Part shown: piece after piece, positions 2,385 to 34,515 of the stretch
How positions within the stretch are numbered: position 1 is the stretch's first letter
Layout of the letters: every line of letters starts with the position of its first letter
IMG/VR virus record: IMGVR_UViG_2639762987_000013
Span: 1-38,273 of that record
Reading direction: 5' to 3' (one strand)
Length of the DNA: 38,273 nucleotides
From: a virus
Lineage: Duplodnaviria; Heunggongvirae; Uroviricota; Caudoviricetes
Translations under genes and position numbers: made by a program
The notes under the pieces: model-generated
What the model saw: the letters and a program-made list of their open reading frames with translations, nothing else
Database searches by the model: none
What the model was told of the DNA's origin: nothing

Positions 2385-2684
2385 TCACATCACCCTGAAT
2401 CCGTTGCATTTACGTAAGAAATCGCAGATATAGCCCTTCATTTTTTCATGCCAATCTCGATCATTCCCATTGCACCAACCATCAGGTGGAGTCCAGTTTT
2501 CTATCAGAGCAGCCATTTTCTTTGCTTTCGCCGGAGTAGCTGTTGCGGTATCGCAGTAATGACGAGTGTTAACCAACGCATCCATACCATCGATATCAAG
2601 TACGCAAAACCATGTGTGATTCGGCATTTCAACAGATGGTATTTGTTGCCCACGTCGACGTTTATCAATAAGACATACAGTCAT
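2385..2684 (-). CDS. Hypothetical Cys/Trp-rich protein, 99 aa
   Basis: ORF with ATG overlapping upstream stop (2681-2684). Confidence 0.45.
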   Translation of the reverse strand: MTVCLIDKRRRGQQIPSVEMPNHTWFCVLDIDGMDALVNTRHYCDTATATPAKAKKMAALIENWTPPDGWCNGNDRDWHEKMKGYICDFLRKCNGFRVM

Positions 2685-2884
2685 GGTTCCACCTTCTCTA
2701 TTTGCTTAAGACCGTCTCTCACTGCATTAAGTACGCGTTCCAGATACTGGTATTTCGGGTTTGGTGCCGTTGGCCAGTCGGCATACCACGGATCATCACC
2801 AAAGAGATTCAGCAGTTTGTTACCGACACCGAAACAACAGCAGCTTTCTTTTACGTCATCGGCGTTTTCCGCCTCGTCCCACAT
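2681..2884 (-). CDS. Hypothetical acidic protein, 67 aa; possibly the C-terminal part of a frameshifted longer gene continuing to 3050
   Basis: ORF 2856..3050 in another frame overlaps it across a GAAGAGAGAGAAA repeat; see findings. Confidence 0.35.
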   Translation of the reverse strand: MWDEAENADDVKESCCCFGVGNKLLNLFGDDPWYADWPTAPNPKYQYLERVLNAVRDGLKQIEKVEP

Positions 2885-3129
2885 TTCTCGAGCCTGTACC
2901 GCGTCGATTTCTCTCTCTTCGTAACTTTATGATTTCTGACTTCACGAAAAGCAGATTTGCATCGTTGTCATCGTCGACCGTGCTTCGCAGTTGAGGGTCG
3001 AAATAGCCGATTAGATACTCGTTGCTGACCCGCTTAATGAACGTCTGCACATCATCACTCGAACCGGATCTAGTCGCTCTGCACCGGTTATAACGAATGA
3101 CAACACATCAATCTTTTCAACCGTTACAC

Positions 3130-3762
3130 TCACTGGTTGCCTCCTTTGCGAAGCTGGTCGGCGAACAAACGTACACCAGACGCTTCACTGCGTAGAAACT
3201 TAACGGCATCATCAAAACCACCTCGTTCTGCGTCGTCTGCTCCGTTGTCGAGGTTATCTGCGTACATCTCTACCCCCTGCGCCCGTACTTCAGCCAGGAA
3301 AGCATCAGTGGTTGGCGTTTCAGGTATCTGTCTCCTCATCCGTTCTATTGCATGATTGAACCCGAAGTCTTCCGCGAGAGATACGTCATCCATATTGTCA
3401 TTGTCATCCTCAATATCCCGTGATTCTGGAATTGCAGACTTTATTCCCGCATTCTCCGCTGCCAGCGCCGCGCACTTGGCCTCCGCTTCAGCAAATTTAC
3501 GCACCAGATATTCAGCGTTTGTTTCGTTAACCTTTAAATCACTTGGGATGCATTTACCTTTCAGAAATCCATCCATCTCAATTAGTGTCATTTGTTTCAT
3601 TTCTTCCCACTCCGCCACATCGCATTCAGATATTTGTTTTGATTCACTGATGGAAAAAGAATTTCTCTTAAGCAATTCCTCTCTCGATGGCATTGGCTTT
3701 ACGCGCTGGCGAATAATCATTTCTGCCGGAAGAATGCCGGGATTGTATGCAAGTCCTCTCAT
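3130..3762 (-). CDS. Hypothetical acidic early-left protein, about 210 aa
   Basis: Start chosen at ATG 3762 (GAGGAA RBS overlapping upstream stop) rather than the track start at 3912, which would overlap the Abc2-like gene. Confidence 0.5.
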
Positions 3763-5627: not shown

Positions 5628-6596
5628 TTAGTAGGTTATTTTTGTTGCGAATACTTCGCCTTTTACGATGGCTGTTATGATATTTTTAGCAACATCTTCT
5701 GATGCACCAACCTTGATAAGGTCAGTAAGTATTTTGTTATTTACTTCTTTCCGGTGAGCTTTATCCTTTGCTCTACGCTCTTCTTCGTCCTTGATTCTTT
5801 TTTCTTCTGCTATTCTGGCTTGCTCTTTTGCTTCAGCCTCGCGACGGATTCGTTCAGCCTCCTCCTGTGCTTTTCTGCGTTCTGCTTCAATTGCCGCCTG
5901 CTTTTCTCTTTCAGCTCGTTCTGCTGCCTCTTTTGCTTCGCGCTGTGCTCGTTGCTCGGCTTCAATGCGTTCACGCTCTGCACGTTCCGCTGCGGCCTTA
6001 GCTTCTGCTTCTCGCCTTGCTGCTGCTTCAATTTCGGCTTTTGCCTTTGCTTCGGCTTCTGCTCTGGCTTTCTCTTCAGCTTCTCTTTTTAAGCGTTCTT
6101 CATGCTCTCGCTTTTCCTGCTCCGCTTTGAGTCTTGCCTCTTCTCTTTGGCGGTCAAATTCGCGATCCATCAAAATCGCTATTTCATGGTCAGACTCAAT
6201 TTGCTTTGCGAGAGCTTCAGCTGCTGCCTTAGCTTCTTCTTCGGCTTTAATCCGTGCCTGTTCCTCCTCATAATCAGTAAGAGGCTGGCGCGCCTTGGCT
6301 TTCAGTTCATCAAGGCGATCGCGCACTGTCTTGCGGTTGGCATCAATTAGCTTTGGAATTTCCTTCAGTTCAGCAACAAGGTCTTTGCCAAGACCATCGA
6401 GATATGTTTTCGTTTGCGCAACTTTATACGCCAGAGAAGCGATCTCCTTTCTGCCCTTTGCCGTTGTGATATCAGGCACAAAGGACATAACTTCACGTTC
6501 AACCTTTTGAAGGATTTCTTCAATCTGGTCGGCAGACTGAAATACAGTCATTGCATTTGCTTTTTCAATAACAACTAAATCTGTTACTTCACTCAT
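5628..6596 (-). CDS. Hypothetical protein with N-terminal globular domain and about 150-aa E/A/K/R-rich single-alpha-helix-like region, 322 aa
   Basis: Long ORF; extreme compositional bias (AEAKAKAEIEAAARREAEAK...) creating artefactual ORFs in other frames. Confidence 0.6.
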   Translation of the reverse strand: MSEVTDLVVIEKANAMTVFQSADQIEEILQKVEREVMSFVPDITTAKGRKEIASLAYKVAQTKTYLDGLGKDLVAELKEIPKLIDANRKTVRDRLDELKAKARQPLTDYEEEQARIKAEEEAKAAAEALAKQIESDHEIAILMDREFDRQREEARLKAEQEKREHEERLKREAEEKARAEAEAKAKAEIEAAARREAEAKAAAERAERERIEAEQRAQREAKEAAERAEREKQAAIEAERRKAQEEAERIRREAEAKEQARIAEEKRIKDEEERRAKDKAHRKEVNNKILTDLIKVGASEDVAKNIITAIVKGEVFATKITY

Positions 6597-7194: not shown

Positions 7195-7446
7195 TCAGGC
7201 AGCCTTTTTGTAAATGTTGCAGGTATCAAGTAAGTAATTAGATGGAGCGCCATAAATTATGAATTCATCGTTTGTCGGGTCCATCTCCATCTCTTGGCCT
7301 ATTGCCATTCTTGCGTCAGTGTCATCAGAGGCGAAGCATAAAACAGCCCACGCACCCATTGTTTTAAAAAGAACTGCAATTGGCTGTGGTTTTACTGAAT
7401 TTGCGTTAGCGCGAAAATCATAAATCGCACTTTCATGAAATTCCAT
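7195..7446 (-). CDS. Hypothetical protein, 83 aa, immediately downstream of N
   Basis: ORF in pL operon. Confidence 0.45.
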   Translation of the reverse strand: MEFHESAIYDFRANANSVKPQPIAVLFKTMGAWAVLCFASDDTDARMAIGQEMEMDPTNDEFIIYGAPSNYLLDTCNIYKKAA

Positions 7447-7454
7447 ATATCACC

Positions 7455-7754
7455 TCAAATAAGTGGTTTGCTGCCTAATTTCATTTTCTGGCGACCAACA
7501 CAAGTCACACCCATTTCACTGCGTGGCTTGCGGTAGTAAATACGATTCTGTTTACTCTCGACTTCTTCTGTCTTCTTGCAGCGAAGGCTTCCGAGTGATG
7601 CTGCTTTATCTGCTCTGACGCAACCAGAGAGCTTTAGCGCAATCTTTCGCGCCAGTCGCTGCTCTTGCATTGCCTGTTCACGTTGAGCCTGTCTGCGTGC
7701 TCTGCGGCGATTTCTGGCGTTATCGTCAGCCAGATATGTAATGACTACTGCCAT
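7455..7754 (-). CDS. N: Antitermination protein N (phage-21-like arginine-rich motif), 99 aa
   Basis: N-terminal ARM NARNRRRARRQAQRE; C-terminal ...RIYYRKPRSEMGVTCVGRQK..KLGSKPLI matches lambdoid N proteins; GGAGG RBS; directly downstream of nutL. Confidence 0.8.
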   Translation of the reverse strand: MAVVITYLADDNARNRRRARRQAQREQAMQEQRLARKIALKLSGCVRADKAASLGSLRCKKTEEVESKQNRIYYRKPRSEMGVTCVGRQKMKLGSKPLI

Positions 7755-7860
7755 GTTGACCTCCGATGATTGACTTTGGCGGTGACGCGCCGGGTGCTTA
7801 TCTTCCGGTTGCTGTCGTGCAGCTGCACTTCACGTCACCCCAAAGCCAACTACTCTTTGG

Positions 7861-7903
7861 TTCCCGCATTTCGGCGGGACAATCCCATCAATGTTAAAGA
7901 GCC
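7861..7903 (-). promoter_or_regulatory. nutL: boxA (GGCTCTTTAACA) plus boxB hairpin (TCCCGC-CGAAAT-GCGGGA)
   Basis: boxA resembles consensus CGCTCTTTA; boxB hairpin has the same stem and loop as the nutR copy at 9557-9576. Confidence 0.7.
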
Positions 7904-7950
7904 TGCCAATCTGTTCCGTTTGGCTACCAGCGTCCTGCTGATGGCTAAAG

Positions 7951-8035
7951 AATACTGTAGGTATTTTATTGTGTAAATACCCAAGGTATTTATTTTTGGT
8001 GAAATAATGATAAGCAAATGAATACAAAGGATATT
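7951..8035. promoter_or_regulatory. OL/pL region: three AATAC-N5-GTATT-type operator half-site pairs (7951-7965, 7976-7990, 8021-8035)
   Basis: Dyad-symmetric 15-bp sites matching those upstream of cro; exact -10/-35 not assigned. Confidence 0.5.
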
Positions 8036-8121
8036 TATTTTTTCGGTGTCTGCTTGTTCAGTGCTTTTTATGCGGGATATGTGAAGTGGATCCCGATAGC
8101 TATTGCTGCCGGGATTATGAG

Positions 8122-8511
8122 TTAGTCAGCGAAGGTTAAGACGAGAATTACCTTAATGATGTCTGCTACAACAGACACGGCCATAGATAAACCAAAGACG
8201 ATCCAAGCCATAGAGATGTCTTCACTACCATCGTATAGAGTTCCGTAATCACTGGTGTAAGGCGTAAATGTCGCGCCTTGATACAACAGGTATAAGCTTG
8301 AACCATAGAGGATAAATGCAGATATCCCTTGTATTGCTATGATCACTAGAATCATGAAACGAGCTGATCTATGCGCCCAAGCCTGGCTTATTTTTTCTGA
8401 TAGAGATTTCGCAATAAAAGCATGCGCTAAGCCGTAAATTGTCGAGATTGCCAACATCCCAAAAAAGCTTGCTATAGCGGTTCCAACCATAATCGCCCCT
8501 TGCGTGATCAA
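8122..8511 (-). CDS. Polytopic (about 4 TM) membrane protein, 129 aa, translationally coupled to cI (rexAB-equivalent slot)
   Basis: ATG 8511-8509 overlaps cI stop 8510-8508; four hydrophobic segments; located between cI and OL/pL. Confidence 0.6.
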   Translation of the reverse strand: MITQGAIMVGTAIASFFGMLAISTIYGLAHAFIAKSLSEKISQAWAHRSARFMILVIIAIQGISAFILYGSSLYLLYQGATFTPYTSDYGTLYDGSEDISMAWIVFGLSMAVSVVADIIKVILVLTFAD

Positions 8512-9224
8512 ACCAGCCTTAGTTTTGTCTCAATTGCAACGCCTATAATCTTGCAGTTTCCATTGATTGGCACGAGAGGCCATGCAGGATTAAGTCCCTT
8601 GAGGTATTTATTTCCGCCGTCGATTATCAGCTTCTTGAATGTTGCTTCGTTAGAGTCAGAAAGTTTTGCTATGACCAAGCTGCCGTTGATCGCCTCCCTT
8701 CCGGTATCGAAAAGAACGAATGTTCCCTCTGGAATGCTTAACCCAACCGGTGCCGTCATTGAATCACCTTCCACTTTAAGCCAAAACGCATTACCTTGAA
8801 TATGCGCGTCAGACTCAAGCCAAACATCTATGTCTTTAATGGTGTATGGTTCGCATGCTTCACACCACGAGCCAGCCTGGATACTGCTTAACACCGGATA
8901 CCTCTTTCCTGCTCTGTATTCCCCTGCATACCTTACGTTGGCATCGCTCTTAAGGCTTTCTGCCTGTTCTGCAACCTTGGCAGCAATTGACTGGCTAAAA
9001 TCAGCAATTGAGACTTGCAACAATCGTGCAAAACCAGATGCAACCTCAACGTTTAGCGCGTTTCTGCCATTAAGATAATGCCCTACCGCTCCTTGGGTGA
9101 TACCCAGTTCATCAGCGATTGAGTATTGGGTTATTCCCAATTCTTTCTTTTTTGACTCATACAAAGCCTTAAGCCGCTTAGCGTCTTCGAGCTGTTCTGT
9201 CGTCAGTGATTTTTTATTTTCCAT
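8508..9224 (-). CDS. cI: CI-type repressor (N-terminal HTH, C-terminal S24 LexA-like autopeptidase), 238 aa
   Basis: HTH ...GITQYSIADELGITQGAVGHYLNG...; S24 motifs (GDSM, downstream Lys); divergent from cro with operators between. Confidence 0.9.
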   Translation of the reverse strand: MENKKSLTTEQLEDAKRLKALYESKKKELGITQYSIADELGITQGAVGHYLNGRNALNVEVASGFARLLQVSIADFSQSIAAKVAEQAESLKSDANVRYAGEYRAGKRYPVLSSIQAGSWCEACEPYTIKDIDVWLESDAHIQGNAFWLKVEGDSMTAPVGLSIPEGTFVLFDTGREAINGSLVIAKLSDSNEATFKKLIIDGGNKYLKGLNPAWPLVPINGNCKIIGVAIETKLRLV

Positions 9225-9235
9225 AGCTTAATTCT

Positions 9236-9299
9236 AATAGCTAAGGTACTTAAACTAAAAATACCCTGAGTATTGATTGTTTTGAATACCTGTAGTATT
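9236..9299. promoter_or_regulatory. OR region: three operator sites (9236-9250, 9260-9274, 9285-9299), consensus AATAC-N5-GTATT, about 25-bp spacing; pR/pRM
   Basis: Perfect dyad GAATAC-CTGTA-GTATTC at 9284-9300; third site 12 bp from cI ATG suggests short or leaderless cI mRNA. Confidence 0.55.
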
Positions 9300-9330
9300 C
9301 TTTATTCATGGTTAATAACGGAGAGTGCAT

Positions 9331-9525
9331 ATGATTCGAATGACACTTGCCGATTACGCCAAAATCCATGGACAGGCTAAAGCAGCCAGTGACTTTGGTG
9401 TAATCCAGTGCGCTATCAGCAAGGCCATTCTGGCAGGCCGTAACATCATGGTTACGGTAAAGCCTGATGGCAGTGTGATTGGAGAGGAAGTTCGTCCTTT
9501 CCCAAGCAACAAGAAAAACAAATAG
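9331..9525 (+). CDS. cro: Cro repressor, 64 aa
   Basis: [36 protein letters not shown]....DGSV..EEV.PFPSNKK parallels lambda Cro; GGAG RBS; ATG 9331 preferred over GTG 9325. Confidence 0.85.
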
Positions 9526-9531
9526 TAACAC

Positions 9532-9576
9532 CGCTCTTTAACAGTCATGGTCCTCATTCCCGCCGAAATGCGGGAA
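9532..9576 (+). promoter_or_regulatory. nutR: boxA (CGCTCTTTAACA) plus boxB hairpin (TTCCCGC-CGAAAT-GCGGGAA)
   Basis: Between cro and cII; same boxB as nutL. Confidence 0.7.
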
Positions 9577-9633
9577 TACAACGCGCATAAGTTGATGCGC
9601 ATAACTTCTTATTAGTTAAGGAAATACTTACAT

Positions 9634-9912
9634 ATGCAACTTACAAGTACTCGCAAGAAAGCGAATGCAATTACAAGCAACATCATGAATCGAATTGCTG
9701 TACGTGGTCAGCGAAAGGTTGCCGACGCGTTAGGGATTAATGAATCGCAAATTTCGCGATGGAAAGACAGCTTTATCCCAAAGATGGCCATGCTTCTGGC
9801 TGTTCTTGAATGGGGTGTTGAAGACGAGGAGTTGGCGGAACTGGCTAAGAAAGTAGCCAGAATGCTGACAAAAGAAAAAGCCCCGAAGAACGGCGAATTC
9901 TTCGAGGCCTGA
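9634..9912 (+). CDS. cII: CII transcriptional activator, 92 aa
   Basis: ...SQISRWKDSFIPKMAMLLAVLEWGVEDEELAELAKKVA... closely parallels lambda CII core. Confidence 0.85.
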   Translation: MQLTSTRKKANAITSNIMNRIAVRGQRKVADALGINESQISRWKDSFIPKMAMLLAVLEWGVEDEELAELAKKVARMLTKEKAPKNGEFFEA

Positions 9913-17306: not shown

Positions 17307-17781
17307 CGTAATAGCGGCGATAAGTGGCGGGGCTATTGCTATAGCATCTGTGTTAATCACTGGGCCAAGTGGTAACGATGGTCTGGAAGGTGTCAGCTAC
17401 ATACCATACAAAGATATTGTTGGTGTATGGACTGTATGTCACGGACATACCGGAAAAGACATCGTGCTCGGTAAAACGTATACCGAAGAAGAATGCAAAG
17501 CCCTCCTGAATAAAGACCTTGCCACGGTCGCCAGACAAATTAACCCGTACATCAAAGTCGATATACCGGAAACAACGCGCGGCGCTCTTTATTCGTTCGT
17601 CTATAACGTGGGCGCAGGCAATTTCAGAACATCGACGCTTCTTCGCAAAATAAACCAGGGCGATATCAAAGGCGCATGTGATCAGCTACGGCGCTGGACA
17701 TACGCTGGCGGTAAGCAATGGAAAGGGCTGATGACTCGCCGTGAGATTGAGCGTGAAGTCTGTTTGTGGGGTCAGCAATGA
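17278..17781 (+). CDS. R: SAR endolysin (T4-lysozyme-like GH24 with N-terminal signal-anchor-release domain; phage 21 R-type), 167 aa
   Basis: N-terminal Gly/Ala-rich SAR ...[34 protein letters not shown]...; catalytic E-D-T region; matches recalled R21. Confidence 0.9.
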
Positions 17782-33995: not shown

Positions 33996-34481
33996 CTATC
34001 TGATATTACTGCTACTGTTGCATGTTACCGTGTTTCCAAATCCTGAATTGCAGTTTGTATATGTGTCAACGCGTGTTGGGTAAGGTTGAGTTATAACAGG
34101 CTGGCGCGCTTTTTGCTCGATCGCTTGCATTGTGTTTACAGCCTGATAATTCAATAAAGCCTGCTGGAATGCTTGGCTTTGTGCTATTTGTTGTGCTTGT
34201 TCTTGGCTTTGTAATTGAACATAAAGATTCTGAAGTTCAAGTCTTGCCTGTGTGTCACTTATCTTGCCTTCATCGACACCTTGCCCGAGCATCTTCGCAG
34301 CAAGGACATACAGCTTAGGTGTTGGTGCTGATGCCATGCGAGAGTCGTTCTTCAAGCTGGCATCAAGGCAATTAGCCATATCGCTAAGCTTTGGATAGCG
34401 TTGCTCGCAACTTGCCTGATAGTCGCTTACTTTTGCGCACCCAGCCAGCAGAAGCGGGATAATTAACAGTGATTTTTTCAT
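33996..34481 (-). CDS. Predicted lipoprotein (signal peptide MKKSLLIIPLLLAGC, lipobox LAGC; Gln-rich helical region; Cys-containing C-terminus), 161 aa
   Basis: ATG 34481 with AAGGAG RBS; lipobox read from sequence; antisense to the late operon, in the sieA/immI slot. Confidence 0.6.
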   Translation of the reverse strand: MKKSLLIIPLLLAGCAKVSDYQASCEQRYPKLSDMANCLDASLKNDSRMASAPTPKLYVLAAKMLGQGVDEGKISDTQARLELQNLYVQLQSQEQAQQIAQSQAFQQALLNYQAVNTMQAIEQKARQPVITQPYPTRVDTYTNCNSGFGNTVTCNSSSNIR

Positions 34482-34515
34482 ATAATTAACTCTCCTTAGT
34501 TTTGCGCAGGATACC

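Follow-up and report, generated by a model that had tools for sequence, protein, structure and literature searches.

hkaS of HK620-type lambdoid phages: a conserved orphan membrane protein gene in the cI operon and a tentative candidate for superinfection exclusion

What might be the function of the one small gene that certain lambdoid phages carry between their repressor gene and their left operators? The question is posed by a 38,273-nucleotide sequence from a tailed phage (Caudoviricetes; IMG/VR record IMGVR_UViG_2639762987_000013, positions 1 to 38,273), and this whole stretch of DNA is referred to below as the window. On its minus strand, an open frame at 8122..8511 (129 amino acids from a TTG start in the mechanical list of open reading frames) abuts the repressor gene cI at 8508..9224 and lies 3′ of it, ahead of the left operators and promoter (OL/pL) and of the antitermination gene N. 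A first-pass annotation had placed the frame there, in the slot where lambda has rexAB, and both the position and the open frame are confirmed by the reading frame list, the domain matches and the annotation of phage HK620. The gene itself has been annotated, as hkaS, since the HK620 genome was deposited, and it is an uncharacterised occupant of a well-known cargo slot. Its position and the type of protein it encodes suggest that HkaS may act as a membrane-level superinfection-exclusion protein resembling SieA of phage P22, although this answer is tentative and has to be weighed against several others. The features that define the gene are as follows.

8122..8490, minus strand: hkaS coding sequence, 122 amino acids, stop codon TAA at 8124-8122, identified by its match to PHROG 6534 and HK620 and by its ratio of nonsynonymous to synonymous substitution rates (dN/dS)
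8491..8511, minus strand: in-frame upstream extension from the TTG at 8511, outside the gene, holding the cI stop codon and the hkaS ribosome-binding region
8496..8501, minus strand: Shine-Dalgarno sequence AAGGGG, 5 nucleotides before the ATG, read from the sequence
8508..9224, minus strand: cI repressor, first gene of the operon, 238 amino acids, from Pfam domains HTH_3 and Peptidase_S24 and the HK620 annotation

The identity of the gene is readily established. The PHROG 6534 profile aligns over its full length (1-122 of 122) to residues 8-129 of the 129-residue frame with an E-value of 3.6e-79, and the protein is 97.5% identical in amino acids to HkaS of HK620 (AAK28867), both being 122 residues long. 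The two are the same gene, located in both phages between cI and tIMM/OL, and they differ by only a few conservative substitutions. In the HK620 record the open reading frame is named hkaS and its product is given as 'unknown'; the order there is cI, hkaS, tIMM, OL3-OL1/pL, nutL and N. The alignment to HK620 is free of gaps, such that window coordinates equal HK620 coordinates plus 109. Over 1.6 kb, the immunity region is 98.8-99.2% identical to those of HK620, HF4s, mEpX2, HK140 and HK630, and the same range holds for two enterohemorrhagic Escherichia coli phages and for two phages that convert for Shiga toxin (Stx) type 2c. hkaS is a genuine, conserved phage gene that belongs to a family of unknown function, PHROG 6534. 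The earlier statement that it was neither RexB, SieB nor a member of any named family holds for homology to RexB and SieB, but the gene does have a name.

Some details of the gene start have to be revised. The start codon had been described as an ATG overlapping the cI stop codon, which gave a protein of 129 amino acids that would be translationally coupled to the repressor. On the coding strand, the junction between the two genes reads GGT TTG ATC ACG CAA GGG GCG ATT ATG. The codon that overlaps the cI stop (TGA, 8510-8508) is the TTG of TTGA, a mere mechanical start of the open frame, and the true ATG of hkaS is found at 8490-8488, 18 nucleotides past the cI stop (a gap of 17 nucleotides), with a Shine-Dalgarno sequence of its own. 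An AAGG(A/G) Shine-Dalgarno sequence precedes the ATG by 5-8 nucleotides in four of four lineages. The start is assigned to the ATG at 8490 because the PHROG profile begins at residue 8, because the gene calls of HK620 and RefSeq give 122 amino acids, and because an in-frame TAA immediately 5′ of the ATG closes the upstream extension in the Salmonella lineage; therefore, HkaS has 122 amino acids rather than 129. Coupling by overlap must be dropped as well, given that there is no overlap. RNA folding of the junction found no structure occluding the Shine-Dalgarno sequence that is common to all lineages. Translational coupling of cI and hkaS is possible, and what is seen is their close spacing.

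Whether the gene matters to the phages that carry it can be judged from its evolution. hkaS is under purifying selection. In comparison with a lineage that is 83% identical, its dN/dS is 0.13 (dS 0.72, dN 0.094), and for cI in the same pair the ratio is 0.03 (dS 0.74, dN 0.022); the near-equal dS values indicate co-inheritance of two genes of equal age. For deeper pairs, in which dS is saturated, 52-61% identity remains for HkaS and 86-89% for cI, and all HkaS homologues down to 52% identity have exactly 122 codons. Among 80 IMG/VR loci, 78 carry an intact hkaS, one carries a frameshifted copy, and one ends at cI; over the 78 intact loci the ratio of nonsynonymous to synonymous diversity (πN/πS) is 0.29. 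In complete E. coli genomes, the 147 copies are without exception chromosomal and full length at the DNA level, the reading frame having been checked in the three copies that were fetched. The protein alignment contains 36 invariant columns, whole motifs among them. A tally of 31 HkaS variants versus 1 cI variant in IMG/VR was not relied on, as it is biased by the choice of loci as best matches to cI. The GC content of hkaS (42%, versus 47.5% for the window) is only mildly moron-like and was not used as evidence.

These data bear on the simplest of the alternatives, which is that hkaS is a spurious or nonfunctional open reading frame retained only by being trapped between cI and OL. In keeping with this, variable codons in hkaS are divided into 7 nonsynonymous and 9 synonymous, versus 1 and 10 in cI, and frameshift alleles occur naturally. 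Phage HF4s has a 1-nucleotide deletion at the equivalent of window position 8396, for which a fragment of 77 amino acids is annotated, and the IMG/VR contig at locus L078 represents a second such allele; an intact cI adjoins both. Unless these alleles are sequencing errors, at least some phages tolerate the loss of hkaS. Nevertheless, the frame has remained open for exactly 122 codons across lineages with saturated synonymous sites, both selection ratios (0.13 and 0.29) are low, and the Shine-Dalgarno sequence and the 36 invariant columns are conserved. A confident AlphaFold2 model can be built for the product, and 147 of the 147 E. coli copies are of full length in their DNA. The conservation data effectively refute the notion of a spurious frame, which is very improbable.

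The architecture of the protein can be predicted in some detail. About four transmembrane helices had been proposed at first, but hydropathy analysis and the AlphaFold2 model both show three. The model, built from an alignment of 8 sequences (predicted local distance difference test score 89.6, predicted template modeling score 0.76), has long helices at residues 2-29, 41-73 and 89-121; a further, short helix spans 31-38, and the loop at 74-88 folds into a small beta-hairpin. The first loop (28-44) is basic, with K28, K33, R41 and R44, whereas the second (74-92) has D81, D87, E90 and D91 and zero basic residues. Because these loop charges follow the positive-inside rule, the N-terminus is predicted to be periplasmic and the C-terminus cytoplasmic. 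The cytoplasmic loop would be positively charged and carry the short amphipathic helix, and the periplasmic loop would be acidic and tyrosine-rich and form the beta-hairpin. In this predicted topology about 25 residues face the cytoplasm and there is no soluble domain; the chain stops one residue past helix 3, with no charged C-terminal tail. We hold with high confidence that HkaS is a three-pass inner-membrane protein with its N-terminus outside and its C-terminus inside (N-out/C-in), and that its gene stands second in the cI operon and ends it.

Conservation is distributed unevenly over this structure. Among five divergent homologues, the cytoplasmic loop has a mean identity of 77%, with 9 of its 15 positions invariant and a conserved motif, LSxKIxQxWxHxxARF; within the protein, conservation is lowest in the periplasmic loop (51%, with 4 of 19 positions invariant). 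The C-terminal ILVLTFAD is invariant across divergent homologues, and invariant polar residues (Q54, S65, S106, D110 and K113) are found within the helices.

The expression of HkaS can be predicted from the organization of the transcription unit, for which the following features are relevant.

7455..7754, minus strand: N-like antiterminator, first gene of the pL operon and left edge of the slot (PHROG 271, E-value 2.6e-36; weak Pfam N_peptide match)
7950-7966 and 7975-7991, minus strand: operators OL1 and OL2, overlapping pL (-35 at 7977, -10 ending at 7949), from the HK620 annotation, the promoter scan and the operator sequences
8090..8115, minus strand: stem-loop AUCCCGG...UCGGGAU, 6 nucleotides past the hkaS stop codon, from RNA folding, with no U-tract
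9225..9324, no strand assigned: right operators (OR) and divergent promoters pRM/pR in the cI/cro interval, from the HK620 annotation with an offset of +109

Co-transcription with cI from pRM, as had been suggested on first reading, agrees with this architecture. The gap between the genes is 17 nucleotides, hkaS appears to have no promoter of its own, and its stop codon has a hairpin 3′ of it in all lineages. A promoter scan found no promoter-like site 5′ of hkaS on its strand, the sole site found being pL (7977-7949). The architecture, together with the HK620 annotation, in which tIMM is set 3′ of hkaS, lends good support to a cI-hkaS operon transcribed from pRM; the operators come after the hkaS hairpin. 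Because hkaS lies between cI and OL, its product is expected to accompany the repressor whenever the latter is made, with pRM as the promoter in lysogens and pRE as the one used in establishment. A stable hairpin occurs at the same spot after the hkaS stop codon in loci L003, L005, L007 and L009, where its sequence is lineage-specific and none has a clear U-tract, and a terminator scan found no canonical intrinsic terminator 3′ of hkaS. The hairpin at 8090-8115 is likely the 3′ end or terminator of the cI-hkaS transcript, or an element that stabilizes this RNA; it is not called a proven terminator because the U-tract is lacking. A search of Rfam over positions 7400-9700 revealed no credible RNA family.

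The association of hkaS with its repressor is without exception among the copies examined. In every context retrieved, the gene starts 17-20 nucleotides past the stop codon of an HK620-type cI and is followed by N, and beyond this shared cI-hkaS-N order the type of N and the recombination and replication genes vary. The cI-hkaS-OL/N position holds in the window, in nine contexts from metagenomes or genomes, in three E. coli prophages whose cI protein (WP_000428318) is identical to that of the window, and in 79 of the 80 IMG/VR loci; the 80th ends at cI and is not assessable for hkaS, which leaves 79 that are. Among 5,426 complete E. coli genomes, 146 (2.7%) carry hkaS at 147 places, and the same cI is present in 146 at 147 places. 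One E. coli genome has two cI-hkaS modules. Compared with the window at the level of nucleotides, cI reaches 99% identity or more in 144 of the 146 genomes and hkaS, the more variable gene, in only 34 of them. A phage collection yielded exactly 16 records with hkaS, all of the HK620 immunity type, and exactly 16 with a cI of at least 99% identity. The linkage is perfect because hkaS is physically enclosed by the operators (OL and OR) that cI must recognize. Carriers include mEpX2, HK630 and HK140, and one mEpX2 record (PV340544) names E. coli K-12 MG1655 as host. The exact HkaS protein sequence is present on at least 1,000 public contigs, always with the label 'hypothetical protein'.

Judged by sequence, HkaS is an orphan. 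A word-indexed protein search recovered 12 clusters of HkaS from E. coli, Hafnia and Salmonella, with identity down to 52%, and Enterobacter is represented among the cluster members. When 1.84 billion (1.84e9) representative proteins were searched exhaustively with an HMMER profile, the HkaS family and one fragment of 44 amino acids were all that was returned. Scans of HkaS with Pfam, NCBIfam and PADLOC gave no usable match, and the only Pfam line, TssN (E-value 0.044, 13.6 bits versus a cut-off of 30.3), was dismissed as noise. The best E-values from Foldseek searches of PDB and BFVD were only 0.36-0.55, and a profile search of PDB sequences found nothing. Direct profile comparisons with hhalign classify HkaS as unrelated to lambda RexB (probability 0.6%), P22 SieA (0.3%) and P22 SieB (0.1%), and a profile comparison with the P22 holin gp13 likewise gave a probability below 1%, marking the two as unrelated. 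Among SieA proteins this comparison was direct for that of P22, and types B and C were covered through the exhaustive search, which had found no relatives outside the HkaS family. No homologues of RexA, RexB, SieA, SieB or gene 17 are encoded in the window, as judged by tblastn. 

If homology provides no clues, the company that the gene keeps might do so. The interval between cI and N is a mosaic hotspot for lysogen-expressed exclusion or defence cargo, and its occupants include rexAB in lambda, hex in 434, stk in 933W, bstA in BTP1 and genes 44/45 in epsilon34 (PMC3564112, 10.1101/2020.07.13.199331, PMC2629481). On this point the literature agrees with the first-pass annotation, which had called the rexAB slot a site of such cargo in other lambdoid phages. 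Stk is a kinase (PMC3564112), and BstA acts by abortive infection (10.1101/2020.07.13.199331). Hex is encoded by an open reading frame of 158 amino acids 3′ of cI on the pRM mRNA and has been purified as a fusion to maltose-binding protein (PMC3564112); the position of hkaS 3′ of cI matches that of hex as described. Hex, Stk, BstA and the epsilon34 products gp44/45 resemble HkaS in their slot and in co-transcription with the repressor, inferred or shown, and mostly have anti-phage accessory functions. However, they are taken to be unrelated proteins, and no small polytopic membrane protein is described among them.

The contents of the slot also differ among phages whose cI proteins are relatives with other specificities, namely Huey, ENT1 and mEp213. 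Phage Huey (locus L097, 2409-2813) has a gene for a 134-amino-acid protein with a signal peptide, which starts in overlap with the cI stop codon and is doubtfully annotated as PagP. Phage ENT1 (locus L099, about 2470-3180) has two unrelated open reading frames, one Cys-rich (about 127 amino acids) and one coding for a coiled-coil protein (about 110 amino acids) with a C-terminal membrane anchor. In mEp213 the slot is empty.

An anti-phage role is favored for HkaS because repressor-cotranscribed cargo of lambdoid phages (RexAB, Stk, Hex and BstA) is typically anti-phage. Some phage proteins of this general kind, such as P22 SieA, T4 Imm and HK97 gp15, work by blocking the entry of incoming phage genomes. 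HkaS, alone at the inner membrane, would act as a superinfection-exclusion protein and would interfere with genome entry by incoming heterologous phages. SieA is the best mechanistic precedent. The conserved cytoplasmic loop and C-terminus of HkaS and its less conserved periplasmic loop match the SieA pattern. The P22 protein, with 162 amino acids and three helices in the inner membrane, needs no partner to block DNA injection, and a cytoplasmic orientation is predicted for its best-conserved motif (PMC10461980). Both proteins are small and stand-alone and would be made by the prophage, with three predicted helices and with a best-conserved motif that is cytoplasmic and near the C-terminus. 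They differ in length (162-164 versus 122 amino acids) and share no sequence kinship; sieA belongs to the ant moron, 3′ of gene 16, and has a promoter to itself, whereas hkaS is part of the cI operon. Position and protein type together suggest a SieA-like exclusion function at the membrane, which is a real possibility for HkaS but one that falls short of being probable.

Several observations weigh against this assignment and must be accounted for. The predicted surface exposed to the periplasm amounts to only about 19 residues. Diversifying selection was looked for in the periplasmic loop, and no signal of an arms race was found there; recent amino acid changes in the E. coli population are conservative and fall mostly in the helices (helix 1), not in this loop. 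The conserved cytoplasmic face would fit a host partner, or cI itself, equally well. The strict linkage of hkaS to cI says nothing about its function or about a functional tie to the repressor. The HK620-type immunity module is carried by podoviruses, siphoviruses and Stx phages, and therefore no consistent target can be inferred. No kinship to any exclusion protein, in sequence or in fold, emerged from the searches, and the models of PADLOC-DB v2 gave no match to HkaS at E-values up to 1. Likewise, a literature search, including searches that combined the gene with HK620, mEpX2, HK630 or HK140, found no functional study of hkaS, a term that is swamped by a fungal herbarium code. In the Tai defence paper, HK620 appears only as a test phage.

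The comparison with RexB leads to a different type of anti-phage mechanism. RexB has four transmembrane helices, and its hallmarks are ion-channel activity and the exclusion of T4 rII. HkaS resembles it in being a polytopic inner-membrane protein whose gene ends the cI operon, ahead of OL, and in lysogen expression, which for HkaS is deduced from position. Even so, RexB has 144 amino acids in the lambda record compared with the 122 amino acids and three helices of HkaS, and there is no homology between them. The 'RexB-like size and topology' attributed to the protein earlier cannot be upheld in view of this length and of the hhalign probability of 0.6%. RexB is also paired with RexA, whereas HkaS is without a partner gene: no open reading frame fits the 17-nucleotide gap between cI and hkaS or the gap between hkaS and OL, and a tblastn search of the window with RexA found nothing. 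The absence of a RexA-like partner, which had been noted from the start, thus stands. A design with separate sensor and effector like that of RexAB is unlikely because HkaS has no soluble domain and there is no room for a partner gene, and a RexAB-type, two-part abortive-infection effector is less likely than stand-alone exclusion.

A version of this mechanism that dispenses with RexA is that HkaS forms a RexB-like oligomeric channel that depolarizes or permeabilizes the lysogen on infection, with the trigger being sensed directly in the membrane or through a factor whose gene lies elsewhere. hkaS occupies the same slot as rexB, and the invariant polar residues are buried, with S102, S106, D110 and K113 on one face of helix 3, as one would expect of an oligomeric pore. 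Class I holins such as lambda S105 and P22 gp13 have three helices in an N-out/C-in arrangement and a length of about 105-120 amino acids, and HkaS shares this topology, by prediction only. RexAB, Stk and BstA, which occur in the slot, are abortive-infection systems (PMC3564112, 10.1101/2020.07.13.199331). However, HkaS lacks RexA or any other partner gene as well as homology to RexB and to the P22 holin, no PADLOC model matches it, and its roughly 25 cytoplasmic residues offer little capacity for sensing the cues of infection. Unlike class I holins, HkaS has neither a charged C-terminal tail nor a dual start, and hkaS lies outside the lysis cassette, an endolysin homologue being located at 17386-17766. 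Furthermore, HkaS is expected in lysogens, which would be intolerable for a true holin. Overall, a channel of this kind seems unlikely.

The strong conservation of the cytoplasmic parts invites another explanation, in which HkaS modulates lysogeny or host physiology through a conserved partner, such as cI, FtsH/HflKC, a transporter or a sensor kinase, and thereby tunes prophage stability and induction or host fitness. The LSxKIxQxWxHxxARF loop and the invariant ILVLTFAD are the most conserved parts of the protein, and hkaS is found only with one repressor lineage. A precedent exists in the same slot, where Hex of 434 stabilizes lysogens by blocking the RecA-stimulated cleavage of its own type of repressor (PMC3564112), and RexA and RexB are reported to influence the transition from lysogenic to lytic growth (10.1101/2021.04.19.439022). 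The linkage to cI, however, is already accounted for by the position between OL and OR, and HkaS is almost devoid of soluble surface, unlike soluble Hex, which was purified as a fusion to maltose-binding protein. In addition, dN for HkaS is about four times that of the near-invariant cI (0.094 versus 0.022), which is a poor fit to a tight interface between the two proteins, and Pfam, NCBIfam and the exhaustive search revealed no homology to known regulators. A modulator role for HkaS is doubtful on this evidence. A more specific form, in which HkaS is a repressor-matched membrane regulator whose cytoplasmic loop and ILVLTFAD couple the state of the inner membrane to the stability of cI or to the cII/FtsH axis, is improbable. 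Envelope stress or incoming injection machinery would then shift the switch between lysis and lysogeny, and one protein of 122 amino acids would fill a Hex- or RexA-like role from within the membrane.

A further candidate function is suggested by size and topology. HkaS might confer immunity against a membrane-acting toxin, which could be a pore-forming colicin, a microcin or one of the phage's own membrane proteins with toxic activity. Its 122 amino acids and three helices resemble E1- and Ia-type colicin immunity proteins and microcin immunity proteins, and the constitutive expression in lysogens expected from its position would suit such a task. By contrast, Pfam, NCBIfam and the exhaustive search place HkaS in no such family, there is no toxin gene adjacent to hkaS, and no known occupant of the slot has a role of this kind, all of which makes this a long shot.

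Exclusion of incoming phages at the membrane, the preferred if tentative reading, would have several consequences if true. HkaS would represent a new sequence-orphan family of one-gene phage barriers that act at the membrane, and with it the rule that defence cargo is carried in the repressor operon would be extended further. Such a function would also bear on the prediction of host range in phage therapy and on the ecology of prophages in Shiga toxin-producing E. coli. The cI-hkaS module is present in phages of three virion types, Stx2c-converting phages included. If HkaS tunes induction instead, it would have a bearing on the stability of Stx phages.

Some additional features of the immunity region and of the rest of the window were noted along the way.

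8020..8036, minus strand: operator-like palindrome AAATATCCTTTGTATTC, a probable third OL site, inside the HK620 tIMM interval
9325..9525: lambda-type Cro

The palindrome AAATATCCTTTGTATTC is kept at the same place in the divergent loci of Salmonella type and Hafnia type, and the OL3 annotated in HK620 (window 7997-8013, TTATCATTATTTCACCA) is non-palindromic. The third OL operator may be misplaced in the HK620 record.

Taken as a whole, the window is a mosaic: its immunity region is of HK620 type at 99% identity, its coat, ejection and gene-16 proteins share about 72-74% identity with the P22 proteins, and coverage of its first 25 kb by any one phage record reaches at most 62%. At the place where P22 has sieA, flanked by the gene-16 homologue and mnt, a gene at 33996-34484 on the minus strand codes for a predicted lipoprotein of 162 amino acids (MKKSLLIIPLLLAGC...). 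This protein, a further candidate for an envelope protein expressed in lysogens, matches PHROG 6067 (unknown function) and nothing in Pfam. Another gene, at 5628-6596 on the minus strand, encodes a highly charged coiled-coil protein of 322 amino acids that is rich in E, A, K and R and matches PHROG 1376 (unknown function), and its homologue in HF4s is annotated as 'similar to phage phi80 Agt; Gam antitoxin'.

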